Positions 37,272-64,000 of a stretch of 64,000 bases of DNA are shown piece by piece. Made by a program: the position numbers and the translations under genes. Origin of the DNA: Naegleria gruberi (Eukaryota). Under the pieces are notes generated by a model that was given only the letters and a program-made list of their open reading frames with translations, was not told where the DNA came from and did not search any database. The DNA lies in assembly GCA_000004985.1 (NCBI GenBank), contig GG738859.1; one strand, given 5' to 3'. Every line of letters begins with the position of its first letter. Positions within the stretch are counted from its first letter, which is position 1.

Positions 37272-38207
37272 ATGAGTGACAACAATCACAGCCAGCAGGA
37301 GGAATTTGCCAACAATATCCAACATCAACCGGATATCATTCAACAACAACAGCAACCAAACAATAACTTTTCCAACGATGTACCATCATCATCATCATCA
37401 GGGTCATCGGATTTTTACATAAATAATTCTTCATCACCAATGCAGGACAATATGTTCATGGATAATTCATCATCATCATTTAATATGAATTATATGCCAC
37501 CTTCTTTTAATAATCAATTTAATCCGAATCAAATATATAATCAAGCTGCTAATCAATTTTCGCCACAACCAAATAATAATATGAATTTTATGAATCCAAC
37601 AGTTTATGCTCCACCAATGAATCAAAATCCACAAACATTACAGGAAATGATTGAACAAAAAAGTAATTATATTCCACCAGAGAAACGAGTTGTCAGACCA
37701 TTACCATTATCTCCATTCATGGAAGGATTTGATTCAATGGAACAAATTCAAAAACAATTGGCTATTAAGAAAGCTATTGAAACAATGACTGAATCATGTG
37801 TTTCTAAATCTGCTTTTGCAGCTGTTGCTGGTACAGTTTTGGGAGGTGCTTTTGGTATTATTAGTGCCAGTTTTACACTTGAAAATACATATATGAAAAC
37901 TCCACAACAAATTATTCGTGAAGAATCAATGACAGGAAGGGAGAAAGTGAGAGAATACTTTAGAGAAACAAAGAATAGATGTGTCAGTATGGGTAAATCA
38001 TTTGGTGCTGTTGGTGCTTTATATAGTTTCTTTGAATGTAGTTTGGAGAAGGTGAGAGGTAAGAAAGATGTTAAGGGAAGTTTAATGGCTGGTTGCATTT
38101 CTGGTGCTGTTCTGGCTAGAAAAGCTGGTATTGGTCCAATGATTTTAGGTTGTGCTACATTCAGTGCTTTCAGTGGTGCTATTGATTATTACACTGAATA
38201 TACTTAA
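37272..38207 (+). CDS. Tim17/Tim22/Tim23-family mitochondrial inner-membrane translocase subunit (Tim23-like, with N/Q-rich N-terminal extension)
   Basis: ATG 37272. The N-terminal ~170 aa are N/Q/S/P-rich (QQQQQPNNNFSN...NQFNPNQIYNQAANQFSPQPNNNMNF). The C-terminal 4-TM core carries GxxxG-type motifs: FAAVAGTVLGGAFGIISASF, GKSFGAVGALYSFFECSLEKVRG, GSLMAGCISGAVLARKAGIGPMILGCATFSAFSGAIDYY. Confidence 0.65.
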   Translation: MSDNNHSQQEEFANNIQHQPDIIQQQQQPNNNFSNDVPSSSSSGSSDFYINNSSSPMQDNMFMDNSSSSFNMNYMPPSFNNQFNPNQIYNQAANQFSPQPNNNMNFMNPTVYAPPMNQNPQTLQEMIEQKSNYIPPEKRVVRPLPLSPFMEGFDSMEQIQKQLAIKKAIETMTESCVSKSAFAAVAGTVLGGAFGIISASFTLENTYMKTPQQIIREESMTGREKVREYFRETKNRCVSMGKSFGAVGALYSFFECSLEKVRGKKDVKGSLMAGCISGAVLARKAGIGPMILGCATFSAFSGAIDYYTEYT

Positions 38208-55209: not shown

Positions 55210-56343
55210 ATGTTCCCATTTACCGACGTTGAGACAAAGGAAAGATTGGCTATCGAGAAGAGAAGACAAGCAGAAGAGGAAAGAAGGAAGAGAATTCTTG
55301 ATCCAAAGGCAAGAACAATGGGTTTAGATGTTGCTGGTATACAATCACAAATTGAAGAAAAGGAGCAAATAAAGAAGCGAGAACAAGACCGTGATAGATA
55401 TTTCGACCAAGCCTCCCTTGTTCATGCAAAGGTTGCCAACATTATGGAGAAGGAAATGCATCAAACTAAAAAACAAGTTTATAAGGAAGTCAATGATTTT
55501 AGAAAAAACGAACAGTTACCTCATACAAGAAGGGAATTTGATTTAAATGATCCTGATGAATTGAAAAAGAGTAGACCAATCAGAGTTGGTGACTATGATC
55601 CTAGCTTGACGATTTCAGGAGGGCAAATTATGCACGGAGAGGACTTGGGTCGTGAAGAAAGACTTAAAGCTCAGCAAGACCAATTGAAGTGTTGGGTCTC
55701 AGAACAAGTCAATGAAAAACAAATGGTAAAGGAAAAGGAAGATTTGGAAAGAAAATTATTCGAGCAAAAGGAATTGGAAATTCAAAGATTGACCTATGAA
55801 TTAAGGGAAAAAGAGAATATGATAAAACTTGAAAAGGAAAGAGAAAGAAAAGAATTCAACGTTGAACAATGGAATGACAAGGAAGAGAAAGAAAAGCTTC
55901 AAAGAGAGAAAGAAGAATTAGATAAATTAGAAGAAATACAGAATCAACTCAATAGTCATCTCCTTAATGAGGCATTCCACACAACTCTCAATGTTAATGA
56001 TCCTAATAGATTTAGACCAGATCACTTCAAGCATATGAGACCAGATCAATACGAACACATTGAACAAGTAAGACAAGAACAACTCAGAGAATTACAACAA
56101 AAGAGAGATACGGAAAGTTTAAATCAACAATATTGGGATAAGAAACGTTTGCTTGAAACAAAGATGGCAGGCTTACAATTAAGAGAACAAGAACGAGCAA
56201 AGAAGCAGCAAGCAGCTGAACTTTTAGAATTACACAAAAGGCAAGCTGAAGAAAAGAAACAAAAGGAAAAGTTTGTAAATCAAGTGTATGCTAATGAGGT
56301 CACAGAGGATTTTTTCAATCGTTTTGGAACAAGCAGTCGTTAA
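55210..56343 (+). CDS. charged R/E/K-rich coiled-coil protein (377 aa), tentatively RIB43A-like (flagellar protofilament ribbon family)
   Basis: ATG 55210; single ORF. Highly charged helical sequence (ERLAIEKRRQAEEERRKRILDPKARTMGLDVAGIQSQIEEKEQIKKREQDRDR...), ending ...TEDFFNRFGTSSR. The family call rests on recollection of RIB43A-like proteins and is not verified. Confidence 0.3.
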   Translation: MFPFTDVETKERLAIEKRRQAEEERRKRILDPKARTMGLDVAGIQSQIEEKEQIKKREQDRDRYFDQASLVHAKVANIMEKEMHQTKKQVYKEVNDFRKNEQLPHTRREFDLNDPDELKKSRPIRVGDYDPSLTISGGQIMHGEDLGREERLKAQQDQLKCWVSEQVNEKQMVKEKEDLERKLFEQKELEIQRLTYELREKENMIKLEKERERKEFNVEQWNDKEEKEKLQREKEELDKLEEIQNQLNSHLLNEAFHTTLNVNDPNRFRPDHFKHMRPDQYEHIEQVRQEQLRELQQKRDTESLNQQYWDKKRLLETKMAGLQLREQERAKKQQAAELLELHKRQAEEKKQKEKFVNQVYANEVTEDFFNRFGTSSR

Positions 56344-56479: not shown

Positions 56480-57007
56480 TTACGTTAAATTGATAGATTT
56501 TGGTTCCAAACTGACTTTTTGTGAAACAAGTGAATAAAATTGATTCATCTTTTCATTCAATGCCTTTTGGTAATTATCCAAAATATACACATATTTGTCT
56601 TGAAGACAGGCTTGATTTGGATCATCTTTTTTTTGTGTTGTTGTTGTTGTTGATGTTGCTGTGTTATTAGTAGTAGATGATGTGCCTGCTGCAGCAGTAG
56701 ATGATGATTGGACTTGTCTCTTCTTTTTCTCTCTTGTTACTGTTGGTGTAGGAACAGGGATCGGAGAGTTAGATTCCTCAGGTGTTGTTTCAGGACTTGG
56801 TTCTTTTCTCTTCTTTTGTGATTTTGGTGTTTTTGGTGCTTTTGGTGTTGTTGATGCTTTTGGTGGTTTTGTGAGGGGAGCCTCTACACATTCCAATCCT
56901 CTCTTTTGACAACGTTCACAAGGTCTCTTCATATCACAACGAAGGTGAGCCTTCCTACATCCAGCACAAGCTCTTCCCACTTTCCCTCGCTTGTTTTCTC
57001 CTCTCAT
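56480..57007 (-). CDS. Zn(II)2Cys6 binuclear-cluster (Gal4-type, fungal-type) DNA-binding protein
   Basis: First ATG at 57005-57007 gives MRGENKRGKVGRACAGCRKAHLRCDMKRPCERCQKRGLECV, i.e. CxxCx6Cx5CxxCx6C. A basic T/P/K-rich linker and a C-terminal helical region follow. The track start 57058 is non-ATG. Confidence 0.6.
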   Translation of the reverse strand: MRGENKRGKVGRACAGCRKAHLRCDMKRPCERCQKRGLECVEAPLTKPPKASTTPKAPKTPKSQKKRKEPSPETTPEESNSPIPVPTPTVTREKKKRQVQSSSTAAAGTSSTTNNTATSTTTTTQKKDDPNQACLQDKYVYILDNYQKALNEKMNQFYSLVSQKVSLEPKSINLT

Positions 57008-57242
57008 TTTTTTACTATTTAAAAATAAAAAATACTTTTCACTACAATCTATTCGCACCTAAAGCAAGGATTAGGAAACGATTCTTTTTGCTTGCTTTTC
57101 TCGTCGCACATGTTTTTTGTTTCACACTAATTTTTTGTTTTAGCTCATTTCTTGCTTTAGTATCTTTCTGAGGTGTGTAGTTTGTAGTGCTATCAAATAA
57201 CGTGGTATTTGCTTAAAGAGTATTCATTTAAATATTAAAATT

Positions 57243-57424: not shown

Positions 57425-59566
57425 TTATTTTTCTTTTCTCTTGGCCATCTTTCTGTCGAGGGCACCCAAAACTTTCTTTCTCAAACGAATATTCTTTGGT
57501 GTAACTTCAATAAGTTCATCTTGTTGGATATAAGTCAAAACTTCTTCCAATTGGAATACTCGAGGTGGAGATAATCTGATAGTATCTTCCTTACCTGCTG
57601 CTCTCATGTTAGTCAAGTGTTTTTCCTTACAAGGATTAACTTCAATATCATTTTCTCTACTGTGTTCACCAACAATCATACCTTCATAACATTCAGCTGA
57701 TGGATGAATGAAAATATTACCTCTAGCTTCAAGTGGACCTAAAGCATAAGGTGTACCTTTACCACCTTCAAGTGAAACCATGACACCCTTTCTAGTCTTT
57801 TCAATAGGTCCCTTGTATGGTTCATAATCACTGAAAATGTGAGTGAGCATACCTTCACCACGAGTATCAGTTCTGAATTCAGAAGCATAACCAATGAGAC
57901 CACGAGTTGGAACTCTATAAAGTAATTTAGCCTTAATACCATCAACCTTATAATCAATCATTTCACCCTTTCTCTTAGCAAGCTTTTCCATACATTGAGC
58001 AGCCAAACCATTATCAACATCAATTGTAACTTCTTCAATTGGTTCCAAAATATCATCCTTACCACCACCTTCAACATCCTTAAAGATGACTCTTGGAGGA
58101 GAAACTTGGAATTCATAACCTTCTCTTCTCATATTTTCAATAAGTACAGCCAATTGCATTTCACCACGACCCATAATTTCAAAAGCTTCACCCATTGGTT
58201 TAATTGTTAAACTGACGTTCATTTCAGCTTCCTTCAATAAACGAGCACGAAGTTGAGTTGCAGAACATAATTTACCTTCCTTACCAGCCAATGGACTGTC
58301 ATTGACAAGGAACATTACAGACAAAATTGGAGGATCAATTGGTTTAGCTTCAATTGGAGTTGTAACTTGTTTAACATCACAAACTGTATCAGTAACACTG
58401 GCCTTTGAAATACCAGCAATGGATACAATAGAACCAGATAAAGCTCTCTTTACAGGTGTTCTTTGCATACCAATTCTTTGCATGACTTGTAAAACTTTAC
58501 CTTCTTCTAAAACTTCACCAGTTCTACTCATAACTTTAACTCTATCACCTGGTTTAACGGCACCACCATACATTTTACCAGTAACAATTCTACCGAAAAT
58601 TCTATCATAATCAACTGTACTAACAAGCATTTGGAATGGACTTGCAGCAGATGGTCTAACTTTTGGACATGGAATATGTTCCAAAATTGCTTCAAAGATT
58701 GGAGCTGTATTCTTTCTTTCATCCTTTTCAAAATCTTTAACTGCCCAACCACTCTTGGCACTGGCATATAAAATTGGGAAATCCAATTGTTCATCATTAG
58801 CTCCCAAATCAATAAATAAGTCATAAACTTCATTTTCAACTTCACCTCCAATACGAGCAGTTTCACGATCTGATTTGTTGAAAATAACAATTGGTTTCAA
58901 TCCATGTTCTAAGGCCTTTCTCAAAACAAACTTTGTTTGAGCCATAACACCTTCAGTAGCATCAACAAGTAAACAAACACCATCAACCATTGACATGACT
59001 CTTTCCACTTCACCTGAAAAATCAGCATGTCCTGGAGTATCAACAATATTGATAATATATTCACCCTTATATTGAACTGATGTCAATTTAGCCATAATTG
59101 TAATACCTCTTTCCTTTTCCAAGTCCAAACTATCCATTGTACGTTCTTCAGCATCATCTTTAATTGTACCTGTTTGTTTTAATAAACAATCAATCATTGT
59201 TGTTTTACCTGTATCGACGTGAGCAATAATTGCCAAGTTACGAATATTCTTTACTGTGACAAATCCTTCGGAATCAGCTTCAGATTCAACTTGAGGAATA
59301 TCTAAAATATTGATATAATTGGATCCAGATAAATCAACTTTGGAATCATGTTGACGTAAATTTGAGGAGAAGAAACGTTCTTGTTGTTGGGAAAGTAATC
59401 TTTGTAAAAGAGAATGTTTTTGGAGGAGATTAGAGTGCTCAAAGTGGAACCCTTGTGAAAAAACAGATGAGGCAGCCCCGATACAAGGTTTTGACTGTGA
59501 TGATGAAGAAGCAATCTTCCTGACGATACGACTACCACTGGCGACAAGGTTTTTAGAGTTGAGCAT
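57425..59566 (-). CDS. typA: BipA/TypA translational GTPase (bacterial type) with ~110-aa N-terminal organellar targeting-like extension
   Basis: 713 aa, single exon. [29 protein letters not shown]...[83 protein letters not shown]... plus the BipA-specific C-terminal domain (...[42 protein letters not shown]...). The N-terminal [27 protein letters not shown]... is Ser/Arg-rich and presequence-like. Confidence 0.85.
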
Positions 59567-59772
59567 TTTTTATCTTCAAGGAAAAGGGTCATTTTTCACA
59601 ACACTCACCATTTTGATTGAAAATTTTCAAAGAACGAGAGTGATGAGTATCGGCTAGTTTTTTGTGCTGCTGGGTTATTTGATTAATGGAGTTTTTCAGA
59701 TATGGAATGGATGATAAAATGAAAAATTAAACTAAATAACAAGAATTTAAAAATCAATATGTAATAAAGATT

Positions 59773-62760
59773 TTACTTTTTCTTTTTAAGTGGAGAGCCA
59801 GATTTTAGAATCTTTTTCTTCTTTGGCTCAATTGATGGCGCTCTAGGTTTGCTTTGTGGTTGTTGTTTGCTTAGGGCAGGTGTTGTGTTTTTAACTAAGG
59901 ATCTCAGTTGGCCTAGTTCCTTTCCATGATGATTGATATCCTTCATGAGATCCATCATCTTTTGCTTGTAGTCTTTGAATTCATTGTTACATTCTTCTTG
60001 GAGTTTTTCAAAATCCTTCAATCTGGTTATGGAATGGGTGTTAGAAGTGTCTGTGTCTTCAGCTCCTGAAATTTCGAGTTGAGAAAGGTCTTCTTTTTTT
60101 CTTCTTACAACAACAGTACTACTGACGTTGTATTCGACCTCATCCTTCTTTTGATCCTTAGTTGGAGGGTGAGATAAATTAGGGGAATGATTTGTTTTTT
60201 GTTTTGATATTTCTACTACAGCCTTTTTGAAACGTCTCTTCTTTCTCTTAATTGTGCTACAGGATGATCCACATTCAGACTCTTCAAGTGAAGAATCAGA
60301 ATCAGAGTCTGTATCATCACTTGAATTGCTTGAATCCTCTATATGTGATTGAGATGTTTCATTCAGCTTGGGTGATGCCATCTTTGGTTCGGCTTTTCTA
60401 AAGAGTGGTTTAATACTATCAGATGTTTCTCTAACCTCTGAATCTCTTGATTTCGTTGAATCTCTTGTTACTCTTGAGCCACCATTGATATTTGGAGAGG
60501 GGTTCATTACATTATTAATGCTCTCTAAATGTTCACATCTTCTTTGGAGCCTTTCATTCTCTTTCTTTTCATTGTCAACTGTTTTCCTGAGCTCGATTAT
60601 CTTTTCTTCAAACATTTTCTCTCTTTTCATTATTTGATCCTTTAGCTTTTCATACTCTTCAGAAAACTTGGATTTTTGTTTTTCGGCTATCAACTGCAAT
60701 TTCTTTGATCGTTTTCTTTCTTCCTCATATTTGATTTTGTACTGATCTAATTGCTCTTCGACTGTTTTTTTAAGATTCAAAAACTTGGCTTCATATTCCT
60801 CAATCCTTTTTTCGCTTTCTAATTTCTGATCCCTTAGTTGACTTTCACTCTTGAGCAACTCTTTTACTCGTTGATTGTATTTTTCCTCTTCCTGCAATAT
60901 GATGTTTTCTTTTTCATTACTTAGATTAACAAGGGTTTGTCGCAGTTCTTGATAGTTTCTTGCCATATCTTTGGATTCACTTTCCAACTCCTTGATTTTT
61001 TCCTCTTTTTCCATGTAGCTTCGTCTTTCCTCTTCAATTTTCTTTGAGAGGGCTTCCAAGGTATCGTGTTGTTGTTGAATTCTGTTCATGTTAGAATTAA
61101 ATTAACATATGACAACTTACTGACTAGTTAATTTTTCATTTTTCTCTTTTAGTTCCTTGGATTTAACCTTATGGTTTTTAACTGTTTCATCAATCTTTTG
61201 TGAAAGCTCTTCATTATATTTCCTCAAATCATTGACTTCTGTTCCTAGCTGCTCAGCATGTTTTTTAATTTCCCTAGAGTGATTTAACAATTCGTCATAT
61301 CTCTTTCTAATATTTACATAAGATTTTTCCTTTTCCTTCCATTCAGTCTCCTTTTCCTTAAGAGTTTTTTGAAGTTGATTTGCTTCGTCTGTTTTGGCTT
61401 GTAATTTTTGTCTTAGTTGCAAAAGCTGCTCGTTTTGCTTCTTTGTTTTTGAACTTAAATCTGCTGACTCATTGCATGATGTTATTATTCTCTCATTCCA
61501 TTCCTTTTCTTTTTGTTTGAACTCTATCCATTTCTCTTCGTATAAACCTCTAAGTGCTTGGAGTTCTAAATCTTTTTCTCGTTCAATAGTTGAGGTTCTT
61601 TCTTCGTGAGCTTCAAGAAGTGCTTCATACTCCACAACTTGATTTGATAGAGATGCTAGTCTTCGTTCATAATCTCTTAACAAAACATCTTTCTCCAGAT
61701 CTCTTTTCTTCTTTTCCACTCGAACTCGATCATCCTCAATTCGTTCTGGTTGTTGGTTGATTGGCCTTTGCTTTTTGGTTTGTGGTTGAGTTTCCTTAGC
61801 CTTAGGTAATTTAGGAGCAATTATTGGAGAAACATCACTAGGTTCAGGGCTTGCAAAAGTAACATTGGGGGTTATTTTTTTTTGAGCTTGGTTTTCAGCT
61901 ACCACTTGTTGGGCAATTTCTGAAACAACGGCCTTTGGAGGAATTTTAGTTTCTGTTGAAGCTTTTACAGAAACAGGTCTTGTTTTCATTGTATTTACAT
62001 TGTCTTCAGTTTCTGTTAACTCAATTTGAGTTGTTTCATCGTCGCTACATTGAGAAATGTCATCAAATGTGAATGGTGTTGCACCCTGTTTTTTTCTTTC
62101 TTCGTTTTCCCTTCTATGTTTCTCCAGTAGTTGATTTACTGATGTTGGTGGTTTAGAAACTACTTGTTTCTTGGGTATGTATTGCTCTTCCTCCTCCTCT
62201 TCCTCAATGTCTGTGTTTTCAATTTGATCATCCTCTGTATCGCAATAAGTTTCTATCACAACTTGTTTGCGATTAGTATTATTTAGTTTTTTGCCTGGTT
62301 TAATTTCTTCAACATCCTCAATTAGAACGCTGATATCACTGTTTTCATCATGAGATGATTGAAGCAGATCATCTTGTATTGAGGAGAGACTCTTCATCTC
62401 TGCTTGCATTTCTCTCAGTGAGGAAAAGATGGCTGATGGTTTGATCAGTTTTTTGTTTCCTTGTTGTTCGTGACAAGAATCTACCATTACTGGAGATTCC
62501 ATGTCTGTATTTTCCTCTTCCAAATATTCATCTTCATCATAATGTTGATTCTCCTCATCATTAATTTCCGTATATTTAAATAATTTTGTTTTTGATGTTC
62601 GTATTGATGATGTATTTTCGATTGAAGGGGTTTTCTTCCTTAGTGATGATACATTTACTTTTTCCTTGTTAATCTGAGAGTGAGTGGTATTGGGCGAAAG
62701 TGTTGTTTGTCTTATTGATGAGCCAAGCACTCGTTTTGTTTGTTGAGAATTTTCATACAT
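59773..62760 (-). CDS. long coiled-coil protein (~983 aa); 2 exons (61121..62760, 59773..61081) joined by a 39-nt intron
   Basis: ATG 62758-62760. The upstream track ORF ends ...KLTSQ-TAA inside the intron gtaagttgtcatatgttaatttaattctaacatgaacag (61082..61120; branch ttctaac). Splicing gives ...KLTS-Q-IQQQHDTLEALSKK... in frame with track ORF 59773..61089. That ORF's apparent ATG lies inside the intron. The sequence is K/E/Q-rich and heptad-rich throughout, with a basic C-terminal tail. Confidence 0.5.
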
Positions 62761-62811: not shown

Positions 62812-64000
62812 TTATTGAAAATGTGAAGGGTACTTTGCCAAATAGGATTGAAGTGATTCTTGAATTTCATCAGTAAGTGATTCAAGTAGAATTTTTTTCT
62901 GTTCTCCAGATTCCATATTCTTAATTGAAATTTTACCTCCCTTCAATTCATCCTCTCCAATAATAATTGTGAGGAGTGATTTACTTTGTTGGGCTTGTTT
63001 CAATTGTTTTGATAAATTTCCCTTCTCAAAATAATTGATTGTAATGCCTTGTTTACGTAATTGTTGGGATAGAATAATAGCAAATTTAGACATTTCCTGA
63101 TCAATAGCTTCATTTGTGCCTCTGACGACTGAAACGAATACTTTTGGAATGTATTCTGGTTGAGGTTGAGTATTTCCCTTTTCCAGTTCTTCCATAATTA
63201 AGGAAAGTCTTTCAAATCCACTAGCCCAACTAGTTAGATGTTAAATTTTGAAATATTTTGTTAATATCAAAACAGAGTTAACTTACCCAACAGCTGGAAT
63301 TTGTTGATTGGCTCCTAATTGTTGAGATAATGTATCATAACGCCCACCTGCGAGAATGGTTGATTTGGCACCAATAACATTGCTCTTAAATTCAAATGTT
63401 GTATGGGTATAGTAATCAAGACCTCTAATAAGAGATGAGTTAATCTTGTATGGAATTTTCAACCATTTCAATCCTAAAAGTACATTTTCAAATCGTTTTC
63501 TATTTTCCTCACTTTGAAATTGAGCTAATTGGGGCATATCATGTTTTTCAATCAAATTTGCAATAAAATCTTCATCCTGTTTAGAGTCGAGAATTCTCCA
63601 AATTCTTCTTGGATTATTTTCTGCAATGGCAATTTCAACTCTAGCTCTACTGTCCTTTGAAAGATTTTCCTCCTGATCAAATAATTCCTTATTCTTTTTA
63701 ACATATTCTAAGAGAGCATGTTGATAATTTTCACGTTCTTTCAAAGTTCCAATAGAGTTAATTTCCAATTGAAATACATCATTTCTACCATCAAGAACAT
63801 TTGTTAAAAATTGATAAGCCATTTCCAAAGATTCCAAATCACTTTGATAATGATCACTTCCTAAATATTCCACTCCAAATTGATGAAATTGACGATATCT
63901 TCCTTTCTGTGGTCTTTCGTATCTAAACATTGGTCCATAATAGTAAATTCTTTGTTTTGTTGAGAGAGCATTTTCGATAACACTTCTCATAATTGGTGCT
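62812..64000 (-). CDS. histidyl-tRNA synthetase (class II aaRS), 5' end beyond window; 57-nt intron 63230..63286
   Basis: Upstream exon (63287..>64000): ...RIYYYGPMFRYERPQKGRYRQFHQFGVEYLG...GLDYYTHTTFEF...ILAGGRYDTLSQQLGANQQIPAVG. This is HisRS motif 2/3 (FRYE...QKGRYRQF; GGRYD). Downstream exon (62812..63229): WASGFERLSLIMEE...VFVSVVRG...LLTIIIGEDELKGGKISIKNMESGEQ is the anticodon-binding domain. The intron is gtaagttaactctg...catctaactag. Confidence 0.8.

Follow-up and report, generated by a model that had tools for sequence, protein, structure and literature searches.

The 64,000-nucleotide (nt) window of the Naegleria gruberi genome analysed here (contig GG738859.1 of assembly GCA_000004985.1, positions counted from its first letter) contains at 57425..59566 on the (-) strand a nuclear gene that very probably encodes the mitochondrial form of the translational GTPase TypA/BipA (mTypA), a protein that would be imported into mitochondria and act there on the bacterial-like mitoribosome. 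This reading is carried by the identity, domain content and intact GTPase motifs of the product, by the nuclear context of its gene, by its membership in a eukaryotic mTypA clade and by the published co-fractionation of the protein with mitochondria.

Identity and domain architecture

The coding sequence is complete in a single exon. The open reading frame (ORF) of 713 codons and a stop (2142 nt) begins with ATG, and its product is 100% identical to N. gruberi XP_002679085.1 (EFC46341.1, UniProt D2VA03), which is encoded on a scaffold of 530 kb and annotated in the database only as 'GTPase'. The initial annotation, made from the sequence alone, had read the gene as a nuclear-encoded, full-length bacterial-type BipA with the characteristic C-terminal domain, and it read the gene correctly. 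The product passes the cutoff of the NCBIfam equivalog TIGR01394, 'translational GTPase TypA' (779.5 bits against 757.3), and aligns with it from end to end (profile positions 1-593 of 594, residues 108-706). The nearest solved structures are those of enterobacterial BipA/TypA (8ewh, 4zcm and 5a9v, E about 1e-167), and the sequence identity to them is taken as decisive for the predicted fold. The structure alignment is continuous except for short indels and begins at query residue 105, which corresponds to BipA residue 2, so that the N-terminal extension comprises 104 residues. The score of 584.8 bits against the cutoff of 1260 in NF007583 (PRK10218) is expected, since this narrow enterobacterial TypA equivalog does not cover organellar forms. 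The lepA family TIGR01393 scored 180 bits against its cutoff of 534, and neither EF-G domain IV (EFG_IV) nor a G' insertion was detected by Pfam in the product.

The five domains of BipA (G, II, III, V and the BipA-specific C-terminal domain) were all located by Pfam and structure alignment on the (-) strand. The G domain (domain I, residues 106-299, 58670..59251) matches PF00009 (GTP_EFTU) with E=4.7e-53 and carries the motifs G1 AHVDTGKT (nt 59201-59224, confirmed in the translation), G2 RGITI, G3 DTPGH with the catalytic His180, G4 NKSD and G5 SAK. The positions G120, K121, T122, T156, D176-H180, N230, K231 and D233 are invariant in an alignment of 18 sequences, namely the query and 17 relatives. 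Domain II (residues 310-397, 58376..58639) matches PF22042 and PF03144 and is an all-beta barrel in the AlphaFold2 model built from the same alignment, with a predicted local distance difference test (pLDDT) score of 80-92. Domain III is an alpha/beta domain whose approximate boundaries (about residues 410-495, 58082..58339) come from the alignment with 8ewh and the modelled secondary structure. Domain V (EFG_C, residues 506-590, 57797..58051) matches PF00679 with E=7.6e-21, and the C-terminal domain specific to BipA/TypA (residues 593-700, 57467..57790) matches PF21018 with E=1.4e-45 over positions 1-108 of 110. A basic tail ending in RKMAKRKEK follows it in the translation. The model of the G domain is confident, and the model is useful for the disordered N-terminus and for domains I, II, III and V.

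Two substitutions set Naegleria and Willaertia apart. In G1, Thr replaces the nearly universal His of BipA (AHVDTGKT for AHVDHGKT), and the same position is occupied by Val in Acrasis and two relatives in the alignment; behind switch II, DFSGEVER is found in place of the DFGGEVER present elsewhere. Both substitutions are probably neutral.

The gene is native and nuclear, as follows from the exact match to an N. gruberi scaffold, from its eukaryotic neighbours and from its native composition. The flanking genes encode RIB43A, CCDC22, Tsr1, a Zn2Cys6 factor and a WD40 protein, and further neighbouring ORFs encode an SMC protein, a kinase and a CENP-C-like protein. The GC content of the BipA gene (36%) fits the neighbourhood, and its relative synonymous codon usage correlates with that of the pooled neighbours at r=0.89, within the range of the neighbours themselves (0.74-0.91 against the pool). 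The expectation that bacterial contamination would be unlikely on account of eukaryotic flanks and matching codon usage was thus borne out.

N-terminal extension and predicted presequence

The extension must be translated, because no in-frame Met lies between M1 and M124, which is situated just past the P-loop. It had been described as about 110 residues long and rich in Ser and Arg. Its presence stands, with a length of 104 residues, and so does the richness in Ser (20% versus 4.4% in the remainder of the protein), while Arg at 4.8% is below the 6.1% of the remainder. Bacterial homologues in the alignment begin 0-3 residues before the G domain, and among 19 other eukaryotic members of the clade that we examined all except Neoconidiobolus have extensions of 44-146 residues.

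Only about the first 66 residues, approximately two-thirds of the extension, look like a cleavable presequence. This predicted mitochondrial presequence (residues 1-66, 59369..59566, (-) strand) is delimited on composition, on the AlphaFold2 model and on published TargetP, MultiLoc and PSORT predictions. It is rich in Ser, has a net charge of +8/-2 and reaches its first acidic residue at E43, so that residues 1-42 hold five basic and zero acidic residues. Residues 4-21 are amphipathic, with a helical hydrophobic moment of 0.59 and a net charge of +4. Residues 1 to about 70 are unalignable even among N. gruberi, N. fowleri and Willaertia, and residues 1-86 are modelled as disordered, with pLDDT <50 and no secondary structure.

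The presequence is predicted to end at a processing motif. R64-F-F-S67 (59366..59377, (-) strand; RFFS in the translation) has the form R-x-[F/Y]/[S/A] of R-3-type sites of the processing peptidase. The R-3 motif R-x-[F/Y/L]/[S/A] is the remainder of processing by the mitochondrial processing peptidase and Icp55, as established by work in yeast. The pattern [R/K]-x-[F/Y]-[S/A] occurs within the extension of 19/19 eukaryotic orthologues, in all but Phlyctochytrium at 7-49 residues ahead of the G domain. In composition-preserving shuffles it was found in 2.3 +/- 1.4 sequences, with a maximum of 8 in 2000 trials; as the sequences are related, this comparison yields no formal probability. The retention of the motif amid otherwise unconserved sequence speaks for selection acting on it. 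Cleavage after F66 would leave a mature N-terminus at S67 and remove a presequence of 66 residues.

The remaining residues 67-104 (59255..59368, (-) strand) form an acidic tail that is predicted, from the alignment, the translation and the model, to stay on the mature protein. Its segment 78-104 (59255-59335, (-) strand) is conserved in N. gruberi, N. fowleri and Willaertia with the pattern DLSGS..NIL[DE]IPQ[VI]ESE.D..GFV.V, and the terminal GFVTV resembles the GCV.V found just before the G domain in chytrid orthologues. In the model, a short extra beta-strand at 103-105 leads into the G domain, which suggests that the tail may add a strand to it.

The sequence directly upstream of the gene has features of its own. 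An in-frame ATG located 45 nt upstream of the BipA start is directly followed by GTGAGT, which resembles a splice donor. This ATG opens an upstream ORF of 11 codons, MVSVVKNDPFP (59576-59611, (-) strand), whose TGA lies nine nt before the main ATG, and a second, out-of-frame ATG is present at 59592. An alternative 5' exon starting here was considered and rejected: no AG acceptor in the vicinity would bring the sequence back into frame, and the protein starts with MLNSK in the RefSeq model as well as in the entry of the proteomics database. Only about 206 nt separate the BipA gene from the gene upstream of it.

Alphaproteobacterial affinity of the mTypA clade

The closest relatives by identity are the proteins of N. 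fowleri (86%), Willaertia (81%) and Acrasis (59%), followed by those of chytrids, dictyostelids and unnamed protist transcripts (53-58%) and then by Alphaproteobacteria (51-53%). The 52 best matches of 600 sampled bacterial genomes belong to Alphaproteobacteria, with one carrying no label beyond 'uncultured proteobacterium', and Firmicutes, Betaproteobacteria, Acidobacteria and Verrucomicrobia rank only after them. Among the matches listed in a tblastn search of plasmids and chromids, alphaproteobacterial sequences reach 50.8-53.3% and all others at most 49.7%. On average, the Naegleria protein is 52.8% identical to the proteins of Alphaproteobacteria, 49.6% identical to those of other bacteria and 42.8% identical to plastid-type TypA (cTypA), and the same order was obtained for all nine mTypA sequences tested. 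Within the cTypA of land plants the mean identity is 74.5%.

Representatives clustered at 50% identity were covered by a full HMMER scan and then by cluster look-ups, which added members from Triticeae, Coprinopsis, Paulinella and Rhodelphis to the mTypA clade. The cTypA set, retrieved with a plastid-type seed from a dinoflagellate, consists of land-plant and green-algal proteins named 'TypA-like SVR3, chloroplastic', including SsTypA1 of Suaeda. No cyanobacterial BipA was present among the best 80 of the 600 sampled bacterial genomes or among the 40 of 57 plasmid-collection tblastn records listed, and plant and algal cTypA therefore served as the proxy for the plastid lineage in the trees. 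Unlabelled sequences of 603 residues that had been candidates for cyanobacterial BipA turned out to be algal, with P0380 (a protein from the European Nucleotide Archive) being 87% identical to Chloropicon cTypA.

Neighbour-joining trees with bootstrap were computed from 582 well-aligned columns and left unrooted. A first tree with all the unlabelled 50%-identity representatives was rejected because long branches between mTypA and the root hid the link to Alphaproteobacteria, and it was replaced by bootstrap split tests and a four-cluster test on named taxa. Heterolobosea and cTypA were each recovered in 100% of replicates, and N. gruberi grouped with cTypA in 0%. The mTypA core of Naegleria, plant, chytrid and dictyostelid proteins, to the exclusion of any named bacteria and cTypA, received 76-88%. 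With named taxa only, monophyly of mTypA including N. gruberi received 92-97%, in a clade spanning Heterolobosea, plants, chytrids, a basidiomycete, dictyostelids, Paulinella and Rhodelphis. In the four-cluster test, the arrangement of mTypA with Alphaproteobacteria against other bacteria with cTypA received 93-97% and both alternatives 0%. The phylogeny that the initial annotation had proposed as a check thus places the Naegleria protein with eukaryotic mTypA and Alphaproteobacteria. As far as the sequences tell, the gene probably descends from the alphaproteobacterial ancestor of mitochondria and belongs to a patchy, eukaryote-wide mTypA clade.

Under a strong gamma correction of rates, mTypA nests among AT-rich lineages of the Rickettsiales and Pelagibacter type, which may be an artefact. 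The nominally alphaproteobacterial sequence P0390 ('MAG TPA: Hyphomonas adhaerens') grouped with cTypA in a Kimura-distance tree and was excluded from the tests; its contig may have been mis-binned.

Published evidence for a mitochondrial location

The subfamily was defined by Atkinson et al. in 2015 (BMC Genomics 16:78, PMC4342817) as a previously unreported mitochondrial TypA that was probably present in the mitochondrial ancestor. Their Additional file 2 gives one mTypA for N. gruberi, and Additional file 7 lists 'mTypA gi|284092700|gb|EFC46341.1|_Naegleria_gruberi C 2 M 2' (PMC4342817). The targeting prediction that had been suggested as a check was therefore already available for this exact protein: the non-plant network of TargetP called EFC46341.1 mitochondrial, with reliability class 2 (PMC4342817).

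Horváthová et al. in 2021 (PMC8134430) fractionated the organelles of N. gruberi and, from co-fractionation with 376 markers, defined a putative mitochondrial proteome of 946 proteins. XP_002679085.1 is listed in sheet 1 of their Supplementary Data 2, the putative mitochondrial proteome, with 10 unique peptides by mass spectrometry, a coverage of 24.5% and intensities of NaN, 24.3 and 26.1 across fractions of rising mitochondrial enrichment, up to the densest one (PMC8134430). The same source gives mitochondrial predictor scores of 89 (TargetP), 75 (MultiLoc) and 43 (PSORT II), 'TypA [Candidatus Odyssella thessalonicensis]' as the best BLAST hit, and a functional-category code shared with the adjacent row of mitoribosomal L30 (PMC8134430).

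The N-terminus had been called typical of mitochondrial or plastid targeting. Proteome and tree support the first of these organelles and exclude the second. The proteomic data, together with the absence of a plastid, identify the organelle of the Naegleria BipA as the mitochondrion; to our knowledge, no plastid has been found in Heterolobosea.

Proposed role in comparison with known TypA/BipA proteins

We propose that the precursor would be synthesised in the cytosol and that its basic, Ser-rich, acid-free N-terminus would direct import into the matrix via TOM and TIM23; a gene of the Tim17/23 family is present in the same window. The processing peptidase would most likely cleave at R64-F-F/S67, leaving a mature protein of ~72 kDa composed of the acidic tail of ~38 residues and the five BipA domains. 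In its GTP form, this protein could bind the GTPase-associated centre (factor site) of the bacterial-like mitoribosome, as bacterial BipA does, with its C-terminal domain extending to the region of the A site and the peptidyl-transferase centre as in the E. coli BipA-70S complex. Identity of ~47% to structurally characterised BipA points to factor-site binding and ribosome-stimulated hydrolysis of GTP. The protein could thereby support the assembly of the large subunit, translation under suboptimal conditions such as cold, or both.

The role proposed for mTypA is based on what is reviewed for bacterial BipA and on the cold sensitivity described for plastid SVR3. Bacterial BipA occupies the factor site of the ribosome and touches the A-site tRNA and 23S rRNA with its C-terminal domain, and 50S assembly at low temperature requires it (PMC5207388). 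The plastid homologue SVR3 is required for chloroplast development in the cold (PMC3022910). Gray et al. in 2020 (PMC7050145) placed a mitochondrion-targeted TypA/BipA among the ribosome-assembly GTPases of the jakobid Andalucia.

The Naegleria protein is a listed member of the mTypA subfamily, clusters with those of Triticeae, chytrids, a basidiomycete, dictyostelids, Paulinella and Rhodelphis, and has no categorical difference from them. In addition to AHVDTGKT and DFSGEVER, its peculiarities, shared with Willaertia, are the unusually long extension and the conserved acidic stretch of ~27 residues upstream of the G domain. Bacterial BipA/TypA of E. coli and Salmonella (5a9v-5aa0, 4zci, 8ewh) has the same five domains and ~47% identity over the full length by tblastn, whereas the Naegleria protein is nuclear-encoded, carries the extension of 104 residues and would have the mitoribosome as its target. 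The cTypA/SVR3 proteins (Arabidopsis At5g13650, Suaeda SsTypA1) and the apicoplast protein TgBipA are likewise nuclear-encoded organellar forms with an N-terminal targeting extension and presumably do an analogous job on organellar bacterial-type ribosomes, but cTypA/SVR3 belongs to another clade (~43% identity) and is destined for another organelle. The mitochondrial EF4, mLepA/Guf1, is a sister bacterial-type translational GTPase that was also kept in mitochondria and acts under suboptimal conditions; it belongs to a different family, with LepA_C in place of the BipA_C of the Naegleria protein. N. gruberi has mLepA as well (PMC4342817).

Alternative explanations

Several points weigh against a mitochondrial TypA/BipA that is imported and acts on the mitoribosome. 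We found no functional study of any mTypA in the literature, and Atkinson et al. (PMC4342817) list its function and targeting as untested. The C-terminal domain is weak in the AlphaFold2 model (pLDDT <50 at 591-667), because the alignment comprised only 18 sequences, and the predicted cleavage site is deduced from a motif. The trees are distance-based, with 582 columns and no verified cyanobacterial sequence, and monophyly of mTypA receives only 62-88% when all unlabelled representatives are included. The localization comes from gradient co-fractionation, in which peroxisomes partly co-purify, and not from microscopy (PMC8134430). The plant network of TargetP called the same N-terminus chloroplast, also with class 2 (PMC4342817); as Naegleria is without a plastid, that call shows only that the predictors cannot separate both types of signal. 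Finally, TgBipA of Toxoplasma, from the group classed by Atkinson et al. as mTypA, is localised in the apicoplast (PMC12838348), so that clade membership alone does not prove a mitochondrial location.

A bacterial-type protein encoded without introns, whose best non-eukaryotic hits are Alphaproteobacteria at 51-53%, could in principle be a contaminant or a very recent lateral acquisition, with the extension being a fortuitous upstream reading frame. This is effectively refuted: the closest bacterium, at ~53%, is far behind the heteroloboseans at 86, 81 and 59%, the gene has eukaryotic genes on both of its sides within a 530-kb scaffold and has native codon usage, the lack of an internal start before the P-loop requires the extension to be translated, its processing motif is common to 19/19 eukaryotic orthologues, and in the trees the protein joins the mTypA of plants, fungi and amoebozoans. 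An orthologue of the plastid-type cTypA/SVR3, which would imply either a plastid, cryptic or since lost, or the endosymbiotic transfer of an algal gene, had been left open by the initial annotation and could be seen in the chloroplast call of the TargetP plant network, yet it is refuted at the level tested. There is 0% bootstrap for a grouping with land-plant and green-algal cTypA, which include the chloroplast-localised SsTypA1 and are separately monophyletic (100%), the identity to them is ten points lower than that to Alphaproteobacteria, and the protein is in the mitochondrial proteome of an organism from a group without a known plastid.

A mitochondrial protein might also have been gained by the heterolobosean ancestor from an alphaproteobacterium by lateral transfer, rather than vertically through the last eukaryotic common ancestor (LECA). 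Such a history would fit the patchy distribution of mTypA, which is missing from animals and yeasts, and the failure of the kinetoplastid 'exTypA' to cluster with it (both PMC4342817), as well as the reduced single-clade support when the unlabelled long-branch representatives are included and the possibly artefactual nesting under gamma correction. We nevertheless consider it highly improbable, since the monophyly of mTypA from named taxa (92-97%) across a wide span of eukaryotes makes a single ancient acquisition the simpler account, and the architecture of presequence and R-3 motif is shared across the clade. There is likewise only a slight chance that the protein is mitochondrial with a main role other than ribosome assembly or translation, as a stress-signalling GTPase, or is dual-localised with a function in the cytosol. 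For bacterial BipA itself, it is debated whether the protein regulates translation or serves as an assembly factor, binding to 30S dependent on ppGpp has been reported (PMC5207388), and the literature search on mTypA function came back empty. Against this, the domains through which BipA touches the ribosome in the BipA-70S structures are all there and well conserved, the C-terminal domain and the basic C-terminal helix among them, the functional-category code is that of the mitoribosomal L30 row (PMC8134430), and the full architecture of a translational GTPase would be hard to explain without binding to the ribosome. An imported mTypA acting on the mitoribosome therefore remains the explanation that we prefer.

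Neighbouring genes

Two other genes of the window had been named together with BipA in the initial annotation, Tim23 and the histidyl-tRNA synthetase HisRS, and both are present. A protein of 311 residues (37272-38207, (+) strand) has a Tim17/Tim22/Tim23 domain in its C-terminal part (residues 176-301, E=8e-27) and a long N-terminal region, an arrangement that fits a Tim23-like subunit of the presequence translocase. The HisRS core-domain ORF (63283-63990, (-) strand; 235 residues) covers no more than positions 87-300 of the HisRS profile, and the gene evidently extends into further exons or past the end of the window. Upstream of the BipA gene, two adjacent ORFs on the same strand, 27 nt apart (59773-61089 and 61117-62760, (-) strand), encode Lys/Glu-rich coiled-coil proteins of 438 and 547 residues with no Pfam match, which may represent two exons of a single gene or one gene interrupted by an intron. 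Immediately downstream of the BipA gene lie a gene for a small protein with the 'fungal' Zn2Cys6 binuclear-cluster DNA-binding domain (56480-57058, (-) strand) and a gene for the full-length flagellar protofilament-ribbon protein RIB43A (55210-56343, (+) strand, E=4e-109), which fits an amoeboflagellate.

Significance

The main points on this gene are already known: it has been in GenBank since the genome of 2010, its classification as mTypA dates from 2015 and the detection of its product in the mitochondrial proteome from 2021. Naegleria mitochondria with bacterial-type ribosomes are textbook knowledge. The view that the gene defines the organelle biology of the organism and marks the origin of the organelle was thus overstated. 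What our analysis adds is the R-x-[F/Y]/[S/A] motif found across the clade, S67 as the predicted start of the mature protein, the conservation of the acidic tail and a four-cluster test that favours an alphaproteobacterial over a plastid-type origin. In the database, the entry now named only 'GTPase' could also be renamed 'mitochondrial translational GTPase TypA/BipA'.

The remaining value of the gene is that of a well-behaved example of a poorly studied factor, from a family that is absent from animals and yeast, the main models of mitoribosome assembly. A more far-reaching idea, which we regard as doubtful, is that the acidic tail of ~38 residues is a mitochondrion-specific module that adapts BipA to the mitoribosome or regulates its GTPase cycle, and that mTypA is a factor of LECA age for the assembly of the mitoribosomal large subunit that was lost in animals and yeasts. 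If this were true, Naegleria or Dictyostelium would be useful models for bacterial-style mitoribosome biogenesis.

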